Source of the DNA: Candidatus Giovannonibacteria bacterium | GTDB taxonomy: Bacteria; Patescibacteriota; Minisyncoccia; UBA11713; 2-01-FULL-45-33 | Reading direction: 5' to 3' | NCBI GenBank assembly: GCA_016432405.1 | Contig: CP066687.1 | Coordinates: forward strand, 586,629 to 650,628 | Length of the DNA: 64,000 bases | In this document: positions 8,297-47,702 of the stretch, in pieces | Layout: every line of letters starts with the position of its first letter | How positions within the stretch are numbered: the first letter of the stretch is position 1 | Notes under the pieces: model-generated | What the model saw: the letters and a program-made list of their open reading frames with translations, nothing else | The model's database searches: none | Told to the model about the DNA's origin: nothing | Position numbers and translations under genes: made by a program

Positions 8297-8403
8297 TCCG
8301 TACGGGTTCGCCCGGCGGTTTTTATTTACTAAAATTATGGAGCGATCGTTTTATAATTTTAGTGAACCGCACTATTTACCAACTTAGACGTCAGACGTCT
8401 AAA

Positions 8404-8432
8404 TGAGGGCGAGTCCACCCTCATTTTTTTAT
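8404..8432 (+). terminator. rho-independent terminator (atgagggcg-agtcca-ccctcat + T7)
   Basis: 7-bp perfect stem followed by a run of 7 T. Confidence 0.5.
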
Positions 8433-8442
8433 TTTTAGTTTT

Positions 8443-8727
8443 TTATCTCCTCCCCGGAGCAAAGGGGTTGGTCTTGCCTTTTGAAACGCCTTCCAAAGAT
8501 GTCTTTGGGGCGGCTTCCAATTCCAGAAATTGCGCGTCGTTGAAAAATGCCGTGTCTATTTTTATGTTTTTGAGCCGCCGCACCAGCTCCAACGCCGGCC
8601 CTTCCGTCTCGCCCCCCTGGCTTATGGCGACTTCCCCGCCGCCGGATGACAGCAGCCACCAAACCGCTCCCGCGATTAAAATTAAAACCGCTGCTCCGGT
8701 TATTATATTTTTATTCAGCATTGTCAT
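8443..8727 (-). CDS. hypothetical membrane-anchored pilus assembly protein (PilP-like?)
   Basis: N-terminal TM helix; start codon overlaps stop of upstream pilO-like gene (ATGA). Confidence 0.35.
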   Translation of the reverse strand: MTMLNKNIITGAAVLILIAGAVWWLLSSGGGEVAISQGGETEGPALELVRRLKNIKIDTAFFNDAQFLELEAAPKTSLEGVSKGKTNPFAPGRR

Positions 8728-9281
8728 CTTTGGTAATACGATTTGGCTTTTAAGGTGAATTCAAAAAGGTTTGAACTGCCGCCGGCGAAAGATATGTCGG
8801 TTATGTCCGCCACGCGCAGATTTTTCTCCAGCGCCGCCAAAAAGGACCTGAAGGATTCGTAGGACGCGGAAAGGGTGAAGCTGTAAGAAATAACGTTGGC
8901 GGCGGCTTCTTCCTTGACCGCTATCCTCGCCGGCCCCGCTGTCTGCGGGGCGGTTGCCTGGGAATCTTTTATGAAATCAATTCTCCTTAAGCGCACTCCC
9001 CTGTCTCTGGCTATTCTTTCCAGCGCCACCAAAATATTTCCGCTGTCGGGCTTAGGCGGAAGCAAGTCGTAAAGCCGTTCTACTTTGCTCCGCGGAATGG
9101 AATTGTAGGCATCTAAAAGCTCGTCCCTCAACCCTTCCAATTCGTGAAGGCGCGCGAGGGTGTCTTCAATCGCGCCGATTTCGGCGCGCAGCCCCGAAAC
9201 GTCGCTCCAGATCGGGCGCGCCGCCCAAAAAATCAAACCCACGGCGGCCGCCAGAAAAATTATTGTAAGAGCGGCTTTCAT
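8724..9281 (-). CDS. pilO: type IV pilus assembly protein PilO-like
   Basis: N-terminal TM helix plus coiled coil; position between pilN-like and pilP-like genes. Confidence 0.55.
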   Translation of the reverse strand: MKAALTIIFLAAAVGLIFWAARPIWSDVSGLRAEIGAIEDTLARLHELEGLRDELLDAYNSIPRSKVERLYDLLPPKPDSGNILVALERIARDRGVRLRRIDFIKDSQATAPQTAGPARIAVKEEAAANVISYSFTLSASYESFRSFLAALEKNLRVADITDISFAGGSSNLFEFTLKAKSYYQR

Positions 9282-9808
9282 TTTTTTAAAGCAATATTTA
9301 AAGTAAAGCCGACCGCTCCGGTTTCTCTAAGCGAAAGATTCCCAAAAGTGGCGCTGGCAACGTTCGGCAGCGCCTCAAAAGCGCTGGACTGGGCGGAAAC
9401 GTCGGCGTAGCTCGCCGCTTCCCCGGTCAAAGTAACAGTGTTTTTTTCGGCCGAGTAGCCGAAAGTGGCGAAACTTGCCGAGGGAATCGTATTGGCTTCT
9501 ATCATGTCAAAGGTCGCCGAGGTTTTTTGGTGGCCACGCAAAATCACCCGCGCTGCGGAGATAGAGTTGGAAACCCTTTCCAGCTCCGCTATCAAAGATG
9601 GTTCAAAAGCGACCTCCAGTTTTTGCAAAACCGATTTCTGGCGCGCAATATTGTTTACCAGATAGTTTCTGTAAAGATAAAGCCCGCCGGTCAGAAAAGC
9701 CGAGGCCATAAAAAGTATGAAAGCAATCCGCAAAAAAACTCCCAAACCGCCCGGGGCATAAATCTGGCTTTGCGGCAATTTTTTTGGTATTAAAGATTCT
9801 TCCGCCAT
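9278..9808 (-). CDS. pilN: type IV pilus assembly protein PilN-like
   Basis: Single N-terminal TM helix; start overlaps pilM stop; conserved pilMNO order. Confidence 0.55.
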   Translation of the reverse strand: MAEESLIPKKLPQSQIYAPGGLGVFLRIAFILFMASAFLTGGLYLYRNYLVNNIARQKSVLQKLEVAFEPSLIAELERVSNSISAARVILRGHQKTSATFDMIEANTIPSASFATFGYSAEKNTVTLTGEAASYADVSAQSSAFEALPNVASATFGNLSLRETGAVGFTLNIALKK

Positions 9809-9811
9809 TTT

Positions 9812-10930
9812 TTAAAACTCCCTTAAGGCGAGGCCCACGGCGCTCGCGAAGGCCGCGCCAACTTCTTTTAACGCCGGCTCCAAAAATGCCGGATAAACAA
9901 CTTTTGAAAAGGGGTTCGCGACTAAAACTTCCACCCCGAATTTTTTTACAAACACATCCCCCACCCCCTTAAGCATTGCTCCTCCGCCCCCCAAAACCAC
10001 TTTGGACACCGCCCGGCCGCCGCGCCTTTTCCAATCCAGCAAAAACCTTTCGCCCTCGGAAGCCCAAAGCTCAACTAAGGGCTCAATCACCGAGGCCACG
10101 CCTTCCGTCTCCGGCCGGCGGATTACTCCGCTTTCCCTTTTTAAAATCTCCGCTCTCTCCCAATCCACCCCCAAGGACTGCGAAAGCGCCAAGGTAAGCT
10201 CCTGCGAGCCGCGGTCAAAGCTGTGCGAAGCCCTTACCACTCCGCCGTCGGCGATTGTCATCTTCACCGAAGAAGCGCCTATATCCATCAAAAGCACCGC
10301 CCCGAAATCGCGCTTTAAAGCCGCGCGGGCGAAAGAAAACACTTCTATCTCAAAGGCGACCGCGGCGAATCCTGCGCCGTCAAAAATGCCTTTGTATTTC
10401 AAAATCGTTTCTTTGGGCACGGCAGCCAAAAGCACTTTGTGGAATTTTCTTTTTCCGGAGCCGATTGAAGTTTCGGAGGCCTCTCTGCTCTCCGGCGGCA
10501 AAATCCACCAATCCATTATCACTTCGCTTACAGGTATGGGAATATATTTCCGCGCTTCGTACGGCACGGCTTCTTTCATATTTTCCTCGCTCATCTCCGG
10601 CAAATCCATTGAGGTGAGAAAGCTGTCTTTTAAAGGAATGGAAACAATGGCCGCCTTGGCGCTCACTTGTGACTCCCGCGCGATGTCTTTGAGCGCCTCG
10701 GTAAGCTTGGTGTCAATAAGCCGAACCGACCGGCTGACGTTGCCGTCGCCGTATTTAGCAAGCGACAGCTCTCCATAGGTCTCCAGAATCGCGCGTTCAC
10801 GCTCCTTCCGAAGCTGAACGAGCTTAATGGAAGACGTTCCGATATCTACGCCCAAGAACCGGCTTTCACGCTTAAAAAGCTGGGATGGGTTTTTTAGGCC
10901 AAACTTTTCCAATAGCGACGCGAAATCCAT
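9812..10930 (-). CDS. pilM: type IV pilus assembly ATPase-like protein PilM
   Basis: Actin/FtsA-like fold signature FLGVDIGTSSIKLVQL near N-terminus; ~370 aa. Confidence 0.75.
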   Translation of the reverse strand: MDFASLLEKFGLKNPSQLFKRESRFLGVDIGTSSIKLVQLRKERERAILETYGELSLAKYGDGNVSRSVRLIDTKLTEALKDIARESQVSAKAAIVSIPLKDSFLTSMDLPEMSEENMKEAVPYEARKYIPIPVSEVIMDWWILPPESREASETSIGSGKRKFHKVLLAAVPKETILKYKGIFDGAGFAAVAFEIEVFSFARAALKRDFGAVLLMDIGASSVKMTIADGGVVRASHSFDRGSQELTLALSQSLGVDWERAEILKRESGVIRRPETEGVASVIEPLVELWASEGERFLLDWKRRGGRAVSKVVLGGGGAMLKGVGDVFVKKFGVEVLVANPFSKVVYPAFLEPALKEVGAAFASAVGLALREF

Positions 10931-10967
10931 TGCTCATAATTCTAGCATCTGATTTAATAATACCACA

Positions 10968-11729
10968 ATGAACGGCTTCCGTGAAAGGATTATCCACACA
11001 TCCCGCCTCATCGGCGGGCGGGTTTTAGACCTCTTTTTCCCCCAAAAATGCGTTTCCTGCTCCAAGCCCGGCGAGACATTGTGCGCCGCCTGCCGCAGCG
11101 CGCTCTTCAGGCCCGGCGGGCAGTGCTTAGTATGCGGGTTCAGGAATAACGACGGAAAAATTTGCCGCGAGCACCGCCTGGGGAAGTTAAAGATTCTTTG
11201 GGCCGGGAGATACGACGGCGCGCTCAAAGACGCGGTCTGGAATTTAAAATATAAAAACAGAAAAGCGCTGGCGGAGCCGCTTGCCAAGATGCTTTTTCAA
11301 AAATTCTCCGAGATGTTTCCGACTGCCTTGCCAAGTCAAGGCGGGGATTTCAAAAACGAAAATTTTATAATCGTCCCTGTCCCGCTCCACAAAAACAAAT
11401 TGCGCCGGCGGGGATTCAACCAAGCCGAGCTTTTGGCCCGCGGGTTTTCAAAACTTTCCAATATCCAACTCCTAACCGGCTCACTTCTAAAAATAAAAGA
11501 AACCCCCGCGCAGGTGGATGTCCAAAACAGAGAAACGAGATTAAAAAATCTGGATGGGGCGTTTTCGGCAGATTCTGAAAAACTTACGGCTTACGGCGTA
11601 GGGCATAAAGCAATTATTTTAATTGACGACGTTTCAACCACCGGCGCGACTCTAATCCATGCTTCAGCCGCGCTTCAGCGCGCAGGCGCCCAAAAAATAA
11701 TCGGGCTTGTTGCTGCGCACGGGGGGTAG
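10968..11729 (+). CDS. comF: ComF family protein (double zinc ribbon + phosphoribosyltransferase domain)
   Basis: CVSCSKPGETLCAACRS...CLVCGF zinc ribbon, then a PRTase motif IILIDDVSTTGATL. Confidence 0.75.
   Translation: MNGFRERIIHTSRLIGGRVLDLFFPQKCVSCSKPGETLCAACRSALFRPGGQCLVCGFRNNDGKICREHRLGKLKILWAGRYDGALKDAVWNLKYKNRKALAEPLAKMLFQKFSEMFPTALPSQGGDFKNENFIIVPVPLHKNKLRRRGFNQAELLARGFSKLSNIQLLTGSLLKIKETPAQVDVQNRETRLKNLDGAFSADSEKLTAYGVGHKAIILIDDVSTTGATLIHASAALQRAGAQKIIGLVAAHGG
11700..11729. repeat. direct repeat copy 1 (comF 3' end atcgggcttgttgctgcgcacggggggtag)
   Basis: 23/23 identical plus 5/7 following nt to copy at 12572-12601. Confidence 0.8.
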
Positions 11730-11759
11730 TGATCCCGCACAGCGGGACTACTACCCCCC
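11721..11759. terminator. nested perfect hairpin (ggggggtagt...cccgcacagcggg...actacccccc) after comF stop
   Basis: 9-bp outer stem enclosing a 5-bp inner stem. Confidence 0.4.
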
Positions 11760-11818
11760 ACGGATAAAAAAGAGGCGGCCGTTCTTAACGGACGCCCCAA
11801 AAACAACTTGCTTTAGAG

Positions 11819-12112
11819 TTAGAGGACTTCAGAAATCTGGTCTCGTTCGACCCAAACATGTTTGCCGTCGTGTAAATAATCCACATCCGTTACTTCGACG
11901 TCGGTCTCGAGGTCAACCGTGGCTTTTGCTCCAAAATGCAGCGGTGGCTTAAGGCCAGTAATACGCCCCTCGCATGAGATCAGCCCGAAAATAAATTTGA
12001 CTCTCTGGCCAATCTTTAGAGGAATGCAATACTTCTCATGTTTCTTTATCAACTTGCTGTCTTTGGAGCTTTCCCCACATATCTCACAATAGAAAACATA
12101 AAACTTTTTCAT
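11819..12112 (-). CDS. hypothetical small Cys-containing protein
   Basis: RBS aaaggagaata before ATG; CEICG...C...C pattern; 1-nt spacer to upstream ORF; no recognised family. Confidence 0.4.
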   Translation of the reverse strand: MKKFYVFYCEICGESSKDSKLIKKHEKYCIPLKIGQRVKFIFGLISCEGRITGLKPPLHFGAKATVDLETDVEVTDVDYLHDGKHVWVERDQISEVL

Positions 12113-12113
12113 T

Positions 12114-12482
12114 CTATTCTCCTTTCCAGCGCTTCCACAATTCTCGTGCTTGTTTTCTTGACTCGCGGTCGATGGCTTCCGGGTCGCCGCCCGCCGCCCG
12201 AATCAAGCGGTTGATATCTTCGTCGGTGTACAGCTTAAATATAATTTCATCCGCCACGGCTTCCGGAAGTTCTGCCGGCTTGACGTCCTTGCCATACTTG
12301 CAGTTTAGGCCAGTCCTGCATGGACCTACGGAGCGGACCTCTGTCTTTCCGGACACCTCGCCTCTTTCTGGTGTCGCCACATAATAATGTTTGACACCGT
12401 CGCATAGTTCATAGTGTTCCATTCTTGGACCAATCGTACCCGATGTATGAGACATGCCGTATTTCTTCCAAGTTACGTCCAT
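12114..12482 (-). CDS. hypothetical protein (122 aa from MDVTWKKYG)
   Basis: Strong RBS aacaggaggttgat before internal ATG of the 144-aa ORF; translationally coupled to downstream ORF. Confidence 0.4.
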   Translation of the reverse strand: MDVTWKKYGMSHTSGTIGPRMEHYELCDGVKHYYVATPERGEVSGKTEVRSVGPCRTGLNCKYGKDVKPAELPEAVADEIIFKLYTDEDINRLIRAAGGDPEAIDRESRKQARELWKRWKGE

Positions 12483-12571
12483 ATCAACCTCCTGTTTGAG
12501 AAAAATATAACCCAAAGCCATGCTAGCACATAGCTCCGGGTTTAACAAGATGCAGGTTTTGCGTAACCATC

Positions 12572-12601
12572 ATCGGGCTTGTTGCTGCGCACGGAGGATA
12601 G
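12572..12601. repeat. direct repeat copy 2 (duplicated comF 3' end, encodes IIGLVAAHGG*)
   Basis: See copy 1 at 11700-11729. Confidence 0.8.
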
Positions 12602-12618
12602 CGGTAAAATGAAGGCAT

Positions 12619-13608
12619 ATGTGGAAAAAACTGTTAGTCCCGGCTTTAATCGTAATCGTGGCGGCGGGCTTAATAATATGGCTGGCGGGGCCAAGCCAAA
12701 AACAGCCCAAAAACTACAGGATAGGAATTATAAAACCCTCCCCCTCTCTTGAGCCGGCCGTAAAAGGATTTAAATCCGAGATGGCAAAATTGGGGTATAA
12801 AGAAGGTGTGAATTTGGAATACGTCGCGGCAGAGGCGGCGCAGGACAAAGCGGCCACCGAAGAGCGCCTCAAAGCATTAATTGAGTCCCCGGTGGATTTA
12901 ATAGTCGTAACCGGCGTGCGCGAAACGCGCTCAATCAGGGAAGCCACGGAAAAATTTTCTCCGTCGCTCCCCGTCGTGTTCGGAGTGGTTTCCGATCCGG
13001 TTGGCAGCGGCGTCGTTAAAGCCATCCAAAGCTCCGGCAACAATCTAACGGGGGTCACCCCGGCCAATGAGATATTGGTCGCCAAGCGGGCAAAGCTGGT
13101 TTTAGGCCTTGTGCCGTCAGCCAAGCGCCTGGTTATGGCCTGGAATAATCCGAACACCAGCGGAATAGAAAATCTTCGCGCGCAAATAAAAGAGCTCGGG
13201 GTGGAACTTTTTGACAAAAAAGTCAACGACGCGAAAGAATTAGATAATTTTTTGGCGACGTTCAGGCCGCGGCCGGGCGATATTTATATAAGAGCGACGG
13301 ACACCGTAAGCGCGGACAGGGTCAAAGAAATTGTTGAATGGGGGCTGAAAAATAAAGTGCCGGTTTCCGGCACCAACATCGGAGACGCGGAGCGCGGCGC
13401 CTTTATGAGCTACGGGGCGGATTATGAATCAATCGGCTTTCAGGTGGCGCGGCTGGCTGACAGAATTTTCAAAGGCGCCAAGCCGTCCGAATTGCCCATT
13501 GAGCCGCCGGGCAAAGTTGAATTGATAGTAAACTCCCAAACCGCCGAAAAGCTGGGCATCACAATCCCCCAATCCGCCGCAATCGGAGTGAATAAGTTCA
13601 TTAAGTAA
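12619..13608 (+). CDS. ABC transporter substrate-binding protein (ABC_sub_bind-type)
   Basis: N-terminal TM/signal anchor; periplasmic binding fold signatures (KNYRIGIIKPSP, VTGVRET, GTNIGDAERGAFMSYGADYESIGFQ). Confidence 0.55.
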   Translation: MWKKLLVPALIVIVAAGLIIWLAGPSQKQPKNYRIGIIKPSPSLEPAVKGFKSEMAKLGYKEGVNLEYVAAEAAQDKAATEERLKALIESPVDLIVVTGVRETRSIREATEKFSPSLPVVFGVVSDPVGSGVVKAIQSSGNNLTGVTPANEILVAKRAKLVLGLVPSAKRLVMAWNNPNTSGIENLRAQIKELGVELFDKKVNDAKELDNFLATFRPRPGDIYIRATDTVSADRVKEIVEWGLKNKVPVSGTNIGDAERGAFMSYGADYESIGFQVARLADRIFKGAKPSELPIEPPGKVELIVNSQTAEKLGITIPQSAAIGVNKFIK

Positions 13609-13725
13609 AATCCTCCGCTGTTACCTCAAAATAACCTTCAGTAATTCAGGAAATTCCTCTTCTTTTTTGAATTTTTCATAATCCGGTTCCCATTTATTTT
13701 TTTAGTACCCATAATTTTTGAATTT

Positions 13726-20446: not shown

Positions 20447-20494
20447 CGGAGGGTTTTTGAGTTTTAGAGAATTACTCTATGCGAGCGGTGTTTT
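20447..20494. repeat. island direct repeat A (cggagggtttttgagttttagagaattactctatgcgagcggtgtttt)
   Basis: Aligns with 24279-24331; includes the last codons (PLA*) of the 931-aa gene and a ccctcc/ggaggg hairpin. Confidence 0.7.
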
Positions 20495-23272
20495 AATCAT
20501 TGATATTATTGAATCAATTTGCTCTCTCAATGTTTTATCTCTAGTTATTCCATCACTGATTTTCTCAAAAGCATAAAGCACAGTCGTATGATCCAGCCCA
20601 AATATCCTTCCAATGGAAGGGAAAGATAAACCTATCATCGTTCGAATAAGATACATGGCGATTTGTCTTGCATGGGCAATTGTGCCTTTTCGTGTCCTTT
20701 TCTTTATTTCTACCAAGCTAAGATTGTAGAATTGAGCAACCGACGCAACAATTTTTTTAGCAGTGAAATTTATTTCTTTCTCTCTTTCTTTAATATAATC
20801 TCTTGGATCTTCATCAGAGTAATAGTACTCACCATATTTTTTAGCAAGAGCTTTGTTAACTATTTGGCGAACGCGCTCCCGAGTAATCTCAAATCTTTGC
20901 GCAATCTCTTCCAAAGTGTGCGGTCTTTGATCATTAAGACCAAATCGCATTTCAACCATTTGTTTTTCTCGGTCCTCCATTCCCTCAACAAGGTCTTTAT
21001 CGCCAAGAGTTTGTCCCTGTTTTGCTTCTTCAAGTTGTTTTTCTCGTCTTGTTTCCCATGCCAACGGCTCTTCCACAAAATGGTCATAAATTCCTGGCCC
21101 AACCTCAAACTTCTTTTGAGCAATGTATACAGGGATATCGATAGCAGGTCCGTAATTTTGTGGAATAGCACCTTTTTGATAAGCTTCCGGGATCATTGCT
21201 CCTAGCGATTCGCTTAAAATAAGCTCCGCCAAATATAGTTGCGCTTCACGAGATTTCTCTACATCGCGCTTTTGTGGATTATCCCCAAAATAATATCTGT
21301 TGATGGGGTGATTCGAGTTGATAAGTATAAAGCCCTGAGTGGGACTTCCTAGCATTGGGTCGTAAGTGGTCTGTAGATGTTTTGGCACCCCATCATCAAA
21401 GTCCCAATCCTTAAATTTACCAGTCGGGCCGGTTGGCGAAGGTTTGATGCGATCCTTAATATCTATCCGGCATTGCGCCGAATAATCCTCAAAATTTGCC
21501 TTAACAATACCAGATTCATCATTCTTTTTGCCCACAAAAGGCACTTCAATTTTTGCCACTTGACTTGTGCTACGCATTCGGCGCGGCACCACGACCCATC
21601 TGTATTTTAGGGCTATTGAGTTGTTGGAACTTGAAAGAGAGATTTTTTTGCCGATCTTTATAACATTCAAATCAACATAAAGATTCAATGTGCTTTCTCT
21701 ATTCGCTGTAGTTCTTATGTAATCTGGACTAAAAACAATACCGTTTTCTGGATACACTATCTCCTCGGACACAATAGAAACCACCACCGAAGCGCTACGT
21801 TTTCCACTTTTTGCTTCTAATGTATCGGCAGTCCTCGCATTCGCACCAGTAACAATGATGGTCTTCACGAGGATGTCATTGCTATCCTCCGGTGCGTCGT
21901 GGACCTCAATTGTAGTCGGCGAAAAACCTATTTTACCTCTTGAAGATTTAAGAGATATTTTAGAACTGGGCTTGATAATTCGGGTATCAATGAATAGTTG
22001 TAGGCCATAGCGCCTTCCTGCAGTGATAGTTATGTTACTCCTAGCAAACTCAATACCTCCAACAGGGCGCGCCTTTTTCTTTATACGGATAACGCCGTTT
22101 GTATCTTCCCCAGTAAGTTGAGCATACAACTTGTTAAGTTCTTCAAGGGCCTTACGGTGATTCTCTTTTGTTATTTCGGAAACACCCTCGTCGGACCTTC
22201 TACGTCTTTCTTCATTGAGAATTGGGTATAACCAATCTTTCACTTCTAAGGCAAGTTTTTTGTAGAAGTCATGTTGGGTATTAAATCCATCCCGAGAATC
22301 GGAAAGTATCGCTTCGGGATGTTTCGGATCATTGATTTTATTGAGAATGATTTCTCTTGCTCCAGTCAGTTTCATGAAGCCGAAAAATTTGTCTGCACCC
22401 GGTAAGCTATCCCAACCGAAAAATGTTTGGGCGTATACGGCTTCTTTATTATCATGAACCAACAAGCCGTTTTCTCTTTCGTCTCCGACGATTTGAAGCG
22501 GCGTAGAAGATTTGTACAGTTCAACATCAATTTTCACGGGGTTATATTTCTCGAATTGCAAAGTAAATTCCTTATGCTCAACCAAATCACCCTTCGGAAA
22601 TTGATATCTAATAACACTTTTTTTAGTGCCTTTCTGGTCCTTGTAAATTAACTGGACCGAGCGTCTATCACTTGAGTTGATAAGGCGAAGCATGAAGAAA
22701 ACACCCACCTTTTTTATTAAGTTGTCATAGTCGTGTATGGTGGTATTATCAAGTACAAATTCGGCAACCGTTCCATGTTTGCTGTTTATACCCCATTCCT
22801 TAGCTAGTTTTTCTGCTAGCTCTTTTTGTTTTTCAACACTAATAAATGGTCTTTCTTTTTTCCAGTAGAAGTTGCAAATGGAGGCTTCGCCGTCCTTGAC
22901 AGATTTTATTTTCCCCTCGCGGTGGTAGAAAAGGACATCCGAAATACCTTGGCCAAAAATTCCTCTCGAACTAAAGCCTTCATAGGCCCCGCTCTTTGCT
23001 GCTCCATATTCTTTAAATTTCTCCTCTAGTTCAGCGGTAGTCATTCCTTGGGCATGGTCTGTTATACGGACTAATCTTTTCGTCTTATCAATAAAAATAG
23101 TAATCGGGAACACCTCTCCGCCATCGTCTTGGCTCGATTCAATTATTTTCCTGTAGCTATCATCGGAATTGGTAATTGGTTCTGTTAGGGTTTTCAGCAA
23201 GCTTTTCCCGACAGCATCCGAAAATTGCCGTTTTATATACCGTGAAGCATATTGTACTGCGATTTCGGTCAT
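20477..23272 (-). CDS. multidomain protein: N-terminal GHKL-type ATPase, central unknown, sigma-70 region-4-like HTH, C-terminal DnaA domain-IV-like DNA-binding domain
   Basis: Motifs read in translation: EPITNSDDS (N-box-like), DHAQGM (G1-like), GIFGQGISD (G2-like); EDREKQMVEMRFGLNDQRPHTLEEIAQRFEITRERVRQIVNKALAKK; SLVEIKKRTRKGTIAHARQIAMYLIRTMIGLSFPSIGRIFGLDHTTVLYAFEKI. Confidence 0.6.
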   Translation of the reverse strand: MTEIAVQYASRYIKRQFSDAVGKSLLKTLTEPITNSDDSYRKIIESSQDDGGEVFPITIFIDKTKRLVRITDHAQGMTTAELEEKFKEYGAAKSGAYEGFSSRGIFGQGISDVLFYHREGKIKSVKDGEASICNFYWKKERPFISVEKQKELAEKLAKEWGINSKHGTVAEFVLDNTTIHDYDNLIKKVGVFFMLRLINSSDRRSVQLIYKDQKGTKKSVIRYQFPKGDLVEHKEFTLQFEKYNPVKIDVELYKSSTPLQIVGDERENGLLVHDNKEAVYAQTFFGWDSLPGADKFFGFMKLTGAREIILNKINDPKHPEAILSDSRDGFNTQHDFYKKLALEVKDWLYPILNEERRRRSDEGVSEITKENHRKALEELNKLYAQLTGEDTNGVIRIKKKARPVGGIEFARSNITITAGRRYGLQLFIDTRIIKPSSKISLKSSRGKIGFSPTTIEVHDAPEDSNDILVKTIIVTGANARTADTLEAKSGKRSASVVVSIVSEEIVYPENGIVFSPDYIRTTANRESTLNLYVDLNVIKIGKKISLSSSNNSIALKYRWVVVPRRMRSTSQVAKIEVPFVGKKNDESGIVKANFEDYSAQCRIDIKDRIKPSPTGPTGKFKDWDFDDGVPKHLQTTYDPMLGSPTQGFILINSNHPINRYYFGDNPQKRDVEKSREAQLYLAELILSESLGAMIPEAYQKGAIPQNYGPAIDIPVYIAQKKFEVGPGIYDHFVEEPLAWETRREKQLEEAKQGQTLGDKDLVEGMEDREKQMVEMRFGLNDQRPHTLEEIAQRFEITRERVRQIVNKALAKKYGEYYYSDEDPRDYIKEREKEINFTAKKIVASVAQFYNLSLVEIKKRTRKGTIAHARQIAMYLIRTMIGLSFPSIGRIFGLDHTTVLYAFEKISDGITRDKTLREQIDSIISMIKTPLA

Positions 23273-23278
23273 ATCAGT

Positions 23279-23935
23279 TTAAAAAAGTAGGTTGCTAAAC
23301 TTTTTCTCAAGCCAAGACAAAAATTCCAACACCTCTTTATCTTTTGTCGTTGTGGCAGAAACTTTAAGTCGTTTCAAGTGTTCAGCCAAAAGCTGCTTTG
23401 GCGTATATGGTGCAGCTTTCAAGAAAGCAAAAAATTCATAATTATTGACTTCCTCATTTGCGAACCACTTCTTAAAAGCTTCTGATACTCGTATTTCTCG
23501 TATATCATCACCGGGGGACTTTCCTCTTGATTTGCTAACTATAATGGGCTTGCGGTCCTTTCTCGGTAAAGGATTCTTCAGTGAACCGGAAACTTGTTTT
23601 GCCATTTCGCGTCCCAAGTCAGTCAGATGAAAGCCGTTTTCAATATTACCTGTTGCCCAATGTTTTCTCTTTTGGTCAGTCAAGCGCCGTAGTGCTTTAC
23701 TGATTCGGTTAGTATCTGGATATTGAATAAAGTTAGCCATTGAAAACTTTCTAGGAAACAATCTGAATAAACCGACAGCAATAAAATCAAAATAGAGGGG
23801 TATCTTCTTTCCTTCAAGCGCGTAAAGCGTATAAACCACTAGACGGTCTAAATCAAAACTATCGTAGTTCACGAAAGGAAAATGTTTTACCCCAAGCAAC
23901 ACCCTTTTTATATTTATACCGTTTTGATTTTTCAT
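23279..23935 (-). CDS. hypothetical protein (operon partner)
   Basis: 6-nt gap to downstream 931-aa gene; no recognised domain. Confidence 0.4.
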   Translation of the reverse strand: MKNQNGINIKRVLLGVKHFPFVNYDSFDLDRLVVYTLYALEGKKIPLYFDFIAVGLFRLFPRKFSMANFIQYPDTNRISKALRRLTDQKRKHWATGNIENGFHLTDLGREMAKQVSGSLKNPLPRKDRKPIIVSKSRGKSPGDDIREIRVSEAFKKWFANEEVNNYEFFAFLKAAPYTPKQLLAEHLKRLKVSATTTKDKEVLEFLSWLEKKFSNLLF

Positions 23936-24278: not shown

Positions 24279-24331
24279 CGGGAGGGGTTTTGAGTTTTAA
24301 AAAATCCTTTTATGCGAGCGGCTGTGGTTTT
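24279..24331. repeat. island direct repeat B (remnant gene 3' end ...KPQPLA* + perfect hairpin cccctcccgc-aat-gcgggagggg)
   Basis: Aligns with repeat A; lies immediately 3' of tRNA-Ile. Confidence 0.7.
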
Positions 24332-24338
24332 CACTTTT

Positions 24339-24412
24339 TGGGCCAGGATGGATTCGAACCATCGCTCCCCGTCTTATAAGGACGGTGCTTTAAACCGCTA
24401 AGCTACTGGCCC
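24339..24412 (-). tRNA. tRNA-Ile (anticodon TAT)
   Basis: Manual fold: acceptor gggccag/ctggccc, D-stem gctt/aagc, anticodon loop cuUAUaa, T-arm gatgg-ttcgaat-ccatc. Confidence 0.65.
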
Positions 24413-47292: not shown

Positions 47293-47321
47293 TCTTTAAA
47301 TTCTAACACAAAATTATAAAA

Positions 47322-47345
47322 ACAATAAGGGCGAGTCTCGCCCTT
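47322..47345 (-). terminator. terminator hairpin aagggcgag-tct-cgccctt (copy 1)
   Basis: Perfect 9-bp stem; T-run when read on minus strand; identical copy at 47679. Confidence 0.55.
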
Positions 47346-47427
47346 ATTTATTTCTTTCAATTATCCTTTTATCTTTTTGGGGCGCCCTCGGGAATCAGTA
47401 AAAACAAATAGGTTATTAAACCCACAA

Positions 47428-47529
47428 TCAATCCACACCGATCGCTACCCAAATCCCTTCGCTATGAAAATATGCCAATACCGCAACAAAAACGGCGGTG
47501 CCGAGCGCCCAACCCAATTTATTAAACAT
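47428..47529 (-). CDS. small hydrophobic peptide, 33 aa (MFNKLGWALGTAVFVAVLAYFHSEGIWVAIGVD)
   Basis: Perfect RBS aaggagga 4 nt before ATG; followed by terminator copy 1; not in ORF track. Confidence 0.35.
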   Translation of the reverse strand: MFNKLGWALGTAVFVAVLAYFHSEGIWVAIGVD

Positions 47530-47678
47530 TTGTCCTCCTTATCTGCACTAGCTCCACTTAAATTCTTATCTCTGTTTAAATTATAATCCCATCAAAATAC
47601 TTATCAAGCTCGGCAATTTTATGGCGTTCTTAACAAAATGTGCCGATCGGTCAAGTTTGTTAAGTTATGAAAAAACAA

Positions 47679-47702
47679 TAAGGGCGAGTCTCGCCCTTAG
47701 AA
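47679..47702 (-). terminator. terminator hairpin aagggcgag-tct-cgccctt (copy 2)
   Basis: Identical to copy at 47322, including flanking aacaataa. Confidence 0.55.

Follow-up and report, generated by a model that had tools for sequence, protein, structure and literature searches.

A two-gene islet flanked by a duplicated comF 3' end in a Candidatus Giovannonibacteria genome

Small islets that lack a recombinase and are flanked by a duplicated gene 3' end are a known kind of genomic insertion. Cis-mobilizable elements (CIMEs; for example Streptococcus ICESt3/CIME) are elements without integration and transfer genes that have retained attL and attR (PMC5704250). Foreign DNA can also be added through short homology, by Campbell-type or by homology-facilitated illegitimate recombination; the latter has one homologous and one illegitimate end and usually replaces or deletes recipient DNA (PMC3240628). 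Here we describe an islet of this kind, an 839-bp segment with two genes located between comF and the gene for an ABC-transporter substrate-binding protein (SBP), in a 64-kb stretch of DNA (the window) from a Candidatus Giovannonibacteria bacterium of the Candidate Phyla Radiation (CPR, Patescibacteria), whose complete genome measures 0.65 Mb. The genomes of CPR bacteria are tiny and gene gain in them is poorly documented; the comF islet resolves such a gain to the nucleotide, with an empty site, a scar, a likely kind of donor and later allele swapping within the cassette.

The islet resembles CIMEs in being small and recombinase-less, in lying between direct repeats of a gene 3' end, and in leaving the open reading frame (ORF) of the target restored; as with CIMEs and decayed integrative elements at the 3' ends of protein-coding or tRNA genes, an empty site is found in a relative. 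It is unlike CIMEs in its length of 0.84 kb, in having no known cognate integrase-bearing element, in showing no sign of excision or of repeated use of the core, and in its "attP side", which appears to be a real comF tail plus a native terminator from a related genome. With transformation-linked recombination it shares a short homology between added DNA and recipient, a host lineage that has competence genes and a donor that would be a relative. It differs from homology-facilitated illegitimate recombination in that 33 bp were duplicated, and a Campbell event requires a circular substrate, which at the comF islet is hypothetical. The features of the locus, in order along the window, are as follows.

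10968-11729, plus strand: comF, ComFC-type (double zinc ribbon and phosphoribosyltransferase domain), intact, 253 aa; the insertion target
11697-11729, plus strand: repeat copy 1, the functional final 11 codons of comF
11721-11759, no strand assigned: strong hairpin across the stop codon of comF, with 11+6 bp, one 1x1 mismatch, a dG of -34 kcal/mol and a z of -6
11730-12568: the insert between the repeats, 839 bp
11762-11798, minus strand: intrinsic terminator of the cassette, GGGGCGTCCGTTAAGAACGGCCGCCTC then TTTTTTAT (hairpin and T-run, from a fold of 11715-11825 on the minus strand)
11819-12112, minus strand: 97-aa ORF, NCBI locus tag HYW15_03560, annotated as hypothetical
12114-12482, minus strand: 122-aa ORF, encoding a two-domain protein
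12483-12568, minus strand: upstream region or leader of the cassette, with a weak sigma-70-like match seen by eye
12569-12601, plus strand: repeat copy 2, a non-functional comF-tail relic whose junction with the SBP gene is exactly that of an empty site in a relative (locus L029)
12619-13608, plus strand: SBP gene, Pfam ABC_sub_bind, E 6.5e-42

The comF product matches the Pfam families DZR_2 (E 1e-8) and Pribosyltran (E 1e-4), and the gene is syntenic with pilM/N/O across all relatives. Its 3' end reads ATA ATC GGG CTT GTT GCT GCG CAC GGG GGG TAG. An earlier prediction on this DNA (the original prediction) held that this end recurs directly in front of the next gene, and both parts were borne out. 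A perfect core of 23 nt, ATCGGGCTTGTTGCTGCGCACGG, lies at 11700-11722 and again at 12572-12594; a repeat search of the window extended it to 33 nt (11697-11729 versus 12569-12601, 30/33 identical, spacing 872), and the second copy ends 17 nt before the ATG of the SBP gene. Both copies translate to IIGLVAAHGG*, and the three differences between them are all synonymous (ATC.., and GGA GGA in copy 2). The possibility that the repeat is a common one in the genome was checked and rejected: the core has exactly two sites in the window, even when three mismatches are allowed, and it had no match in 100 shuffles. An assembly artefact is excluded, since independent sequencing runs yielded 13 contigs with this arrangement and another, diverged strain (locus L007) has it too. 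We also considered GGAGGA in repeat copy 2 as a ribosome-binding site of the SBP gene; at about 20 nt from the ATG it is too distant.

Scans with ComF gave 48 related loci. In the following, L-numbers denote related loci fetched for comparison and P-numbers homologous proteins. The search among relatives for comF placed directly before the SBP gene found this empty site in L029/L030, to which, outside the strain cluster, the window is most closely related (PilM 94%, SBP 95% and ComF 75% identical); the result backs an insertion. There the SBP gene begins 14 nt after comF, and the cassette is absent. In blastn, window positions 8402-11730 correspond to L029 1441-4772 and window positions 12569-13612 to L029 4739-5782, while the 839 bp at 11730-12568 have no counterpart in L029. 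A single 34-bp stretch of L029 (4739-4772) thus aligns to both repeat copies, and the event was therefore an insertion or, conversely, a deletion. An empty site in the window lineage would have the form ...GCTGCGCACGG(A/G)GG(A/G)TAG(CGG)TAAAATGAAGGCATATG and be continuous with the body of comF. Copy 2 retains the L029-type junction to the SBP gene, TAG[CGG]TAAAAT.A.GGCATATG, and copy 1 has a hairpin-type junction. The SBP gene, whose product is 95% identical to the one encoded right behind comF in L029, is the original downstream neighbour of comF. The comF-tail relic is fused to the SBP gene, and an earlier insertion into the comF-SBP junction is therefore required.

The left end of the insert is homologous to the flanks of comF in other genomes. 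Comparing the insert with all fetched loci by blastn, we found a 47-nt match of about 91% identity between the sequence right behind comF in L037 and window positions 11750-11796, which comprise the hairpin's right arm, the terminator and, between them, the spacer ACGGATAAAAAA, although the ComF protein of L037 is merely 57% identical to that of the window. At the stop codon of comF, L037 (1492-1564) carries the left arm GGGGGGTAGT too, so that the full outer stem aligns, and comF is followed there by a convergent, unrelated 189-aa gene. L039 (about 648-700) likewise has the outer stem GGGGGGTAGT/ACTACCCCCC at the comF stop, then another convergent gene. The convergent ORFs of L037 and L039 were considered as relatives of the cassette and rejected, being unrelated to the cassette proteins. 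In the window, the left arm of the outer stem consists of the last two codons of comF and the stop codon, and the hairpin occurs once. It had been described as a perfect nested hairpin following the first repeat copy; the hairpin is real, but it contains a 1x1 mismatch, and instead of being peculiar to a mobile element, it and the adjacent terminator share homology with what natively follows comF in other Giovannonibacteria. By these alignments, there is one type of Giovannonibacteria genome that natively has this hairpin and terminator behind a comF with convergent cargo.

Because the hairpin and terminator are native to comF flanks, the inserted DNA probably came from a related genome and carried its own comF tail, and the duplication is better read as the scar of a crossover than as a target-site duplication. 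The proposal of an insertion that duplicated its target therefore holds insofar as the comF 3' end is duplicated and an empty site exists, and needs correction insofar as the duplication is probably not of the classical target-site kind. The window backbone on both sides is of the L029 type, with comF co-directional with the SBP gene, and the last 160 nt of comF are 92-93% identical. A chimeric comF with a donor-derived gene body was not supported: identity to L029 is uniform (78-86%) across segments.

Strain L007 (SRR4343435) carries the same cassette at the same site, and its divergence from window positions 11400-12900 is mosaic. Read from the alignment, the figure for comF is 1 difference in about 300 nt; the hairpin has 0/30, the 122-aa gene 4/369 and the SBP gene 2/282; the 97-aa gene has 44/294 (15%) and the leader upstream of the 122-aa gene 26/88 (30%). 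Repeat copy 1 differs at 3/33 positions and copy 2 at 2/33. The codon differences in the 97-aa gene comprise 17 synonymous and 18 non-synonymous ones, a rough dN/dS of ~0.35. The break points of the mosaic coincide with the distal edge of the terminator, which is also where the likeness between the window and L037 ends. This pattern implies allele replacement within the cassette and cassette-bearing lineages that have not been sampled. Among the four repeat copies of the window and L007, all five variable positions (5/5) are third codon positions of the comF frame, the relic included, which is why two diverged comF alleles fit better than the decay of a fresh duplication. A diversity-generating retroelement was considered as the source of the diverged 97-aa allele and rejected: the window holds no template repeat, and the changes are gene-wide. 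In L069 and L070 the upstream gene seems to encode a variant of 135 aa, but the DNA is identical and only the start call differs.

We consider it somewhat more probable than all other readings together that the 839-bp segment is a horizontally acquired two-gene islet which entered by a single crossover. The insertion, the duplication, the empty site and the homology of the left end with comF flanks elsewhere are shown; the crossover is the part of this explanation that we infer. The donor would be another Giovannonibacterium with the cassette convergent to comF and with the same hairpin and terminator, and the recipient chromosome would have had comF directly before the SBP gene. The incoming DNA would consist of the last ~33 nt of the donor comF, the hairpin, the terminator and the convergent cassette. 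One Campbell-type crossover of a circularised intermediate within the ~33-bp tail (23 bp of it perfect) would then give a copy 1 with a recipient left and a donor right part (GGGGGGTAG plus the hairpin), keeping comF intact, and a copy 2 with a donor left and a recipient right part (GGAGGATAG plus the SBP junction), the relic tail. The make-up of the two copies is as this model predicts. Two agents are conceivable: RecA, using 23-33 bp of homology and a circularised molecule, and a site-specific recombinase supplied in trans. CPR bacteria can be naturally competent (PMC10633639), and DNA of relatives is therefore plausibly available to them.

Several points weigh against this account. Among the loci compared, none is a donor genome with comF, hairpin and cassette minus the relic, and the donor layout is reconstructed. 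DNA imported by transformation is linear and single-stranded, which leaves the circular intermediate hypothetical, and 23-33 bp lies at the lower limit for RecA-dependent recombination. The conservation of hairpin and terminator could reflect a function, for example as a recombination site, and not a recent transfer. The empty site of L029 gives no polarity, as L029 may have lost the cassette through the repeats; a deletion between the repeats leaves an identical empty site. The role of the cargo, finally, is read from resemblance in fold and motif, and the structural model of the 122-aa protein is unreliable.

The possibility of loss in L029 can be made a full alternative, in which the composite layout is old and vertically inherited and L029/L030 became empty later, by a deletion between the 33-bp repeats. 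Recombination between direct repeats leaves one copy, as seen in L029; every one of the 13 contigs that carry this comF allele has the cassette, as does strain L007, and the G+C content of the insert is not atypical, being similar to that of the flanks. Such a deletion, however, would change the polarity relative to L029 only, since the relic fused to the SBP gene still needs an earlier insertion between comF and that gene, and neither cassette nor hairpin is present in L014, L015 and L040, the remaining relatives whose PilM reaches 75% identity or more. We regard it as a minority reading, though the strongest of the alternatives. Slightly behind it, and unlikely in our judgement, is a non-autonomous, CIME-like site-specific element at the comF 3' end, with the 33-bp repeats as attL and attR, the conserved hairpin as part of att, and a tyrosine or serine recombinase either acting in trans or lost by decay. 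Such elements are classically recognised by direct repeats of a gene 3' end that leave the ORF restored; here one of the flanking repeats is the comF 3' end itself, and the unoccupied site in L029/L030 has a single copy of the repeat. The 23-bp core is perfect and the differences lie in the arms only, the comF hairpin is conserved in three lineages with different cargo, as fits a recurrent landing site, and the repeats are hot spots of variation, with 5 differences per 66 nt versus ~0.3-1% in the flanks of two strains that are ~99% identical. The recombinase is what this reading lacks: the insert holds no integrase or transposase, none is recognisable in the window ORFs by a crude regex test for recombinase motifs, and among ~30 other comF loci there is neither an integrase beside comF nor a second duplicated comF tail, that is, no second occupied site. 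The core is also missing from 2.9 million viral contigs, L037 and L039 lack a relic copy in the DNA available, and the element measures only 0.84 kb. An excising element would be expected to form the circle junction ...GCAGGTTTTGCGTAACCATCATCGGGCTTGTTGCTGCGCACGGGGGGTAGTGATCCCGCACAGC..., and all 13 contigs with the window comF allele (13/13) are occupied by the cassette.

A transposon or an insertion resembling a miniature inverted-repeat transposable element, with the 33-bp repeat as a long target-site duplication from staggered cuts, would account for direct repeats that bound the insert exactly, and some insertion sequence families (the IS1634 and IS1549 groups) produce long, variable duplications. 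This explanation is close to refuted, as the insert has no terminal inverted repeats and no transposase and is present in one copy only, in the window and across all loci; moreover, the repeats are non-identical and differ solely at synonymous comF positions, and the left end is homologous to comF flanks elsewhere. An integron gene cassette was rejected because there is no attC array and no intI-like ORF, and because the segment has its own terminator and is convergent to comF. A Xer/dif-type site was rejected by eye: TGCGCA is present in the repeat, but a dyad like that of dif is not, and the repeat is part of a coding 3' end. A viral origin found no backing in three protein scans and the DNA-core scan of IMG/VR, nor a phage or plasmid origin in tblastn against INPHARED and PLSDB; the sole exception in these searches was a weak, meaningless 36-aa match in L062.

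Within the insert, the existence of two coupled ORFs on the opposite strand with ribosome-binding sites was confirmed: a single nucleotide separates the TAG of the 122-aa ORF from the ATG of the 97-aa ORF, and the starts are preceded at 5 nt by AGGAGG and AGGAGA, respectively. The terminator at 11762-11798 is of canonical form and serves the 97-aa gene. In the leader, TTGTTA (12543-12548) and TAGCAT (12520-12525), 17 nt apart, were seen by eye as a sigma-70-like match at 8/12 positions, a putative promoter only; a consensus promoter scan of the leader gave nothing above threshold. As a translationally coupled pair, the cassette has its own terminator and, probably, a promoter. The leader also contains, at 12509-12542 on the minus strand, a terminator-like stem (15 pairs, including G-T) followed by ATATTTTTCT, which overlaps the putative -10 element and may be either an attenuator or a product of chance, as shuffles yield 1.8 terminator-like stems in this region. 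An Rfam search of the insert gave no family.

The 97-aa protein has five homologues with 55-80% identity. The prediction of a CxxC...C...C spacing was right about the CxxC pair, while the pattern that is invariant in 6/6 family members is C9-x2-C12-x12-H25-x3-C29, and C47 is not conserved; the motif LHDGKHVWV is invariant as well. In the AlphaFold2 (AF2) model (pLDDT 85), the N-terminus forms two short strands and a helix (residues 19-28). The family profile matches C2H2 fingers in the PDB (E 2e-6), while Pfam zf-C2H2 stays below cut-off for single sequences of the family. The sole family signal is DUF7128, for which P0006 lies just over the gathering score, P0004 lies under it, and the window protein has no match. 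Alignment and model together point to an N-terminal beta-beta-alpha zinc finger of the C2H2 type with predicted C2HC metal ligands, and the C-terminus is modelled as a five-stranded Tudor/SH3-like beta-barrel superposable on known members. The gene is real, given the family alignment, the rough dN/dS given above and the confident fold. Ros/MucR, the prokaryotic C2H2-type proteins, and PhnA/YjdM have a single zinc module in ~100 aa, to which PhnA/YjdM adds an SH3-like barrel; for the 97-aa protein these are leads only, since it differs from them in having no match to their Pfam families and in its C2HC ligands with the eukaryote-like spacing C-x2-C-x12-H-x3-C.

Among 5.8 billion clustered proteins, the 122-aa protein has no full-length homologue but itself. 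Exhaustive HMMER searching split it into two domains. The N-domain (about residues 1-85) resembles P0012, a standalone protein of 81 aa, and by eye the two share three aligned Cys and one His. The helical C-domain (about residues 70-121), with the motif YTDEDI..LIRAAGGDP.AIDR.SR.QAR.LW, resembles P0008, P0009, P0010 and P0013 and occurs in proteins of 65-177 aa. The AF2 model has a pLDDT of 49. Judging from these alignments, the protein is a two-domain partner that possibly binds metal. The cargo defines two small uncharacterised families, one a zinc finger with a Tudor-like barrel and the other the "LIRAAGGDP" helical domain. We further observed that in L063 (1777-2342) a 70-aa protein with the latter domain is followed by the gene of a basic 118-aa protein, overlapping by 4 nt, and that in L066 (871-1526) a 110-aa protein with this domain is followed by the gene of a 108-aa membrane protein, also with a 4-nt overlap; L066 resembles the runs of small co-directional genes of phages and mobile elements.

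The two ORFs had been proposed to form a toxin-antitoxin or other addiction or defence mini-module, which as a type II system would stabilise the islet selfishly. The layout is that of type II toxin-antitoxin operons: both genes are small, they are translationally coupled, they have regulatory signals of their own and they occupy a variable, accessory spot. The 1-nt spacer and a ribosome-binding site for each gene agree with this, and the distribution is patchy. The 97-aa gene differs by 15% at the nucleotide level between strains in which the 122-aa gene differs by 1%, and SH3-like barrels are also present in the toxins MazF and CcdB. The islet is unlike such operons in every other respect we looked at. 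Neither protein has a toxin, antitoxin or defence match in PADLOC, Pfam, NCBIfam or PHROGs, where nothing beyond the weak zinc-finger signal was found; no known toxin family or fold was recognised, with the 122-aa model too poor to judge. Paired inheritance is not seen either: the 97-aa homologues stand alone in L008 and L009, while in L010, L011 and L013 they lie beside a RAYT-like gene (REP-associated tyrosine transposase, Y1), and a 122-aa homologue is absent from all five of these loci, which make up four other contexts. The C-domain homologues are paired with unrelated genes (L063, L066) or have no downstream partner gene (L065), and the two partners do not co-vary between strains. Because of the missing family matches, the unpaired partners and the lack of co-variation, we consider a toxin-antitoxin function improbable. 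At present, the result is a negative one as far as defence or toxin-antitoxin biology is concerned. With low confidence, fold and motifs suggest a small nucleic-acid- or protein-binding pair with an accessory or regulatory role.

At least six arrangements are found downstream of comF among the relatives: the SBP gene, a gene of 577-645 aa with an SPFH domain, a 189-aa gene, a 99-aa gene, a pair of 104-aa and 443-493-aa genes, and the present cassette. A speculative extension, to which we give little credence, is that the comF stop hairpin is a recurrent landing pad and the islet one case of a general CPR insertion route that has not been described. Along such a route, itself a long shot, small, self-contained gene units that lack a recombinase would be added just after a stop codon or terminator, duplicating 29-61 nt of 3' sequence. 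A host or trans-acting activity could bring this about, as could short-homology recombination linked to competence. Hints of it are three repeat-flanked inserts in the 64-kb window, two in unrelated loci of 97-aa homologues, and the variety downstream of comF. The duplications of 3' ends around small inserts may be coincidence or a common mode of gene addition in these genomes; if common, it would be a simple route of gene addition that spares compact operons and is possibly linked to competence.

In L010 and L013, a RAYT-like gene with flanking palindromic REP-like hairpins lies between copies of the folD tail (the last 61 nt, ~80% identical), an architecture that matches that of the comF islet; the second copy is an in-frame relic, followed by a 94-aa homologue of the 97-aa protein. 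The folD copies are located at 1065-1125 and 1879-1939 in L010, with hairpins at 1146-1166 and 1843-1863, and at 286-346 and 1098-1158 in L013, with hairpins at 375-400 and 1072-1097. In L009, copies of a 34-nt intrinsic terminator (651-684 and 1238-1271, 91% identical) surround a 138-aa homologue of the 97-aa protein, a layout that suggests an insertion duplicating the 3' signal of the upstream gene.

Elsewhere in the window, a 41-nt direct repeat (20448-20488 and 24281-24321, 83% identical), which ends in the left half of a terminator hairpin, bounds a 3.8-kb islet just downstream of tRNA-Ile(tat) (24339-24412, minus strand). This islet contains an ORF at 20477-23272 (minus strand) for a 931-aa protein with HATPase_c_3, sigma-70 region 4 and DnaA_C helix-turn-helix domains, and an ORF at 23279-23935 (minus strand) for a 218-aa protein with no matches; there is no integrase inside, and its sole PADLOC match is a partial MzaA, to the helix-turn-helix region only. 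A perfect 29-nt direct repeat, AAAAACAATAAGGGCGAGTCTCGCCCTTA, a terminator-like hairpin, lies at 47318-47346 and 47671-47699 and bounds a 353-bp unit. Between its copies, a mini-ORF at 47428-47529 (minus strand) encodes the hydrophobic 33-aa peptide MFNKLGWALGTAVFVAVLAYFHSEGIWVAIGVD and is preceded by AAGGAGGA. From its sequence, the unit looks like a small insertion that duplicated a terminator, or like a gene for a small membrane peptide resembling a type I toxin.

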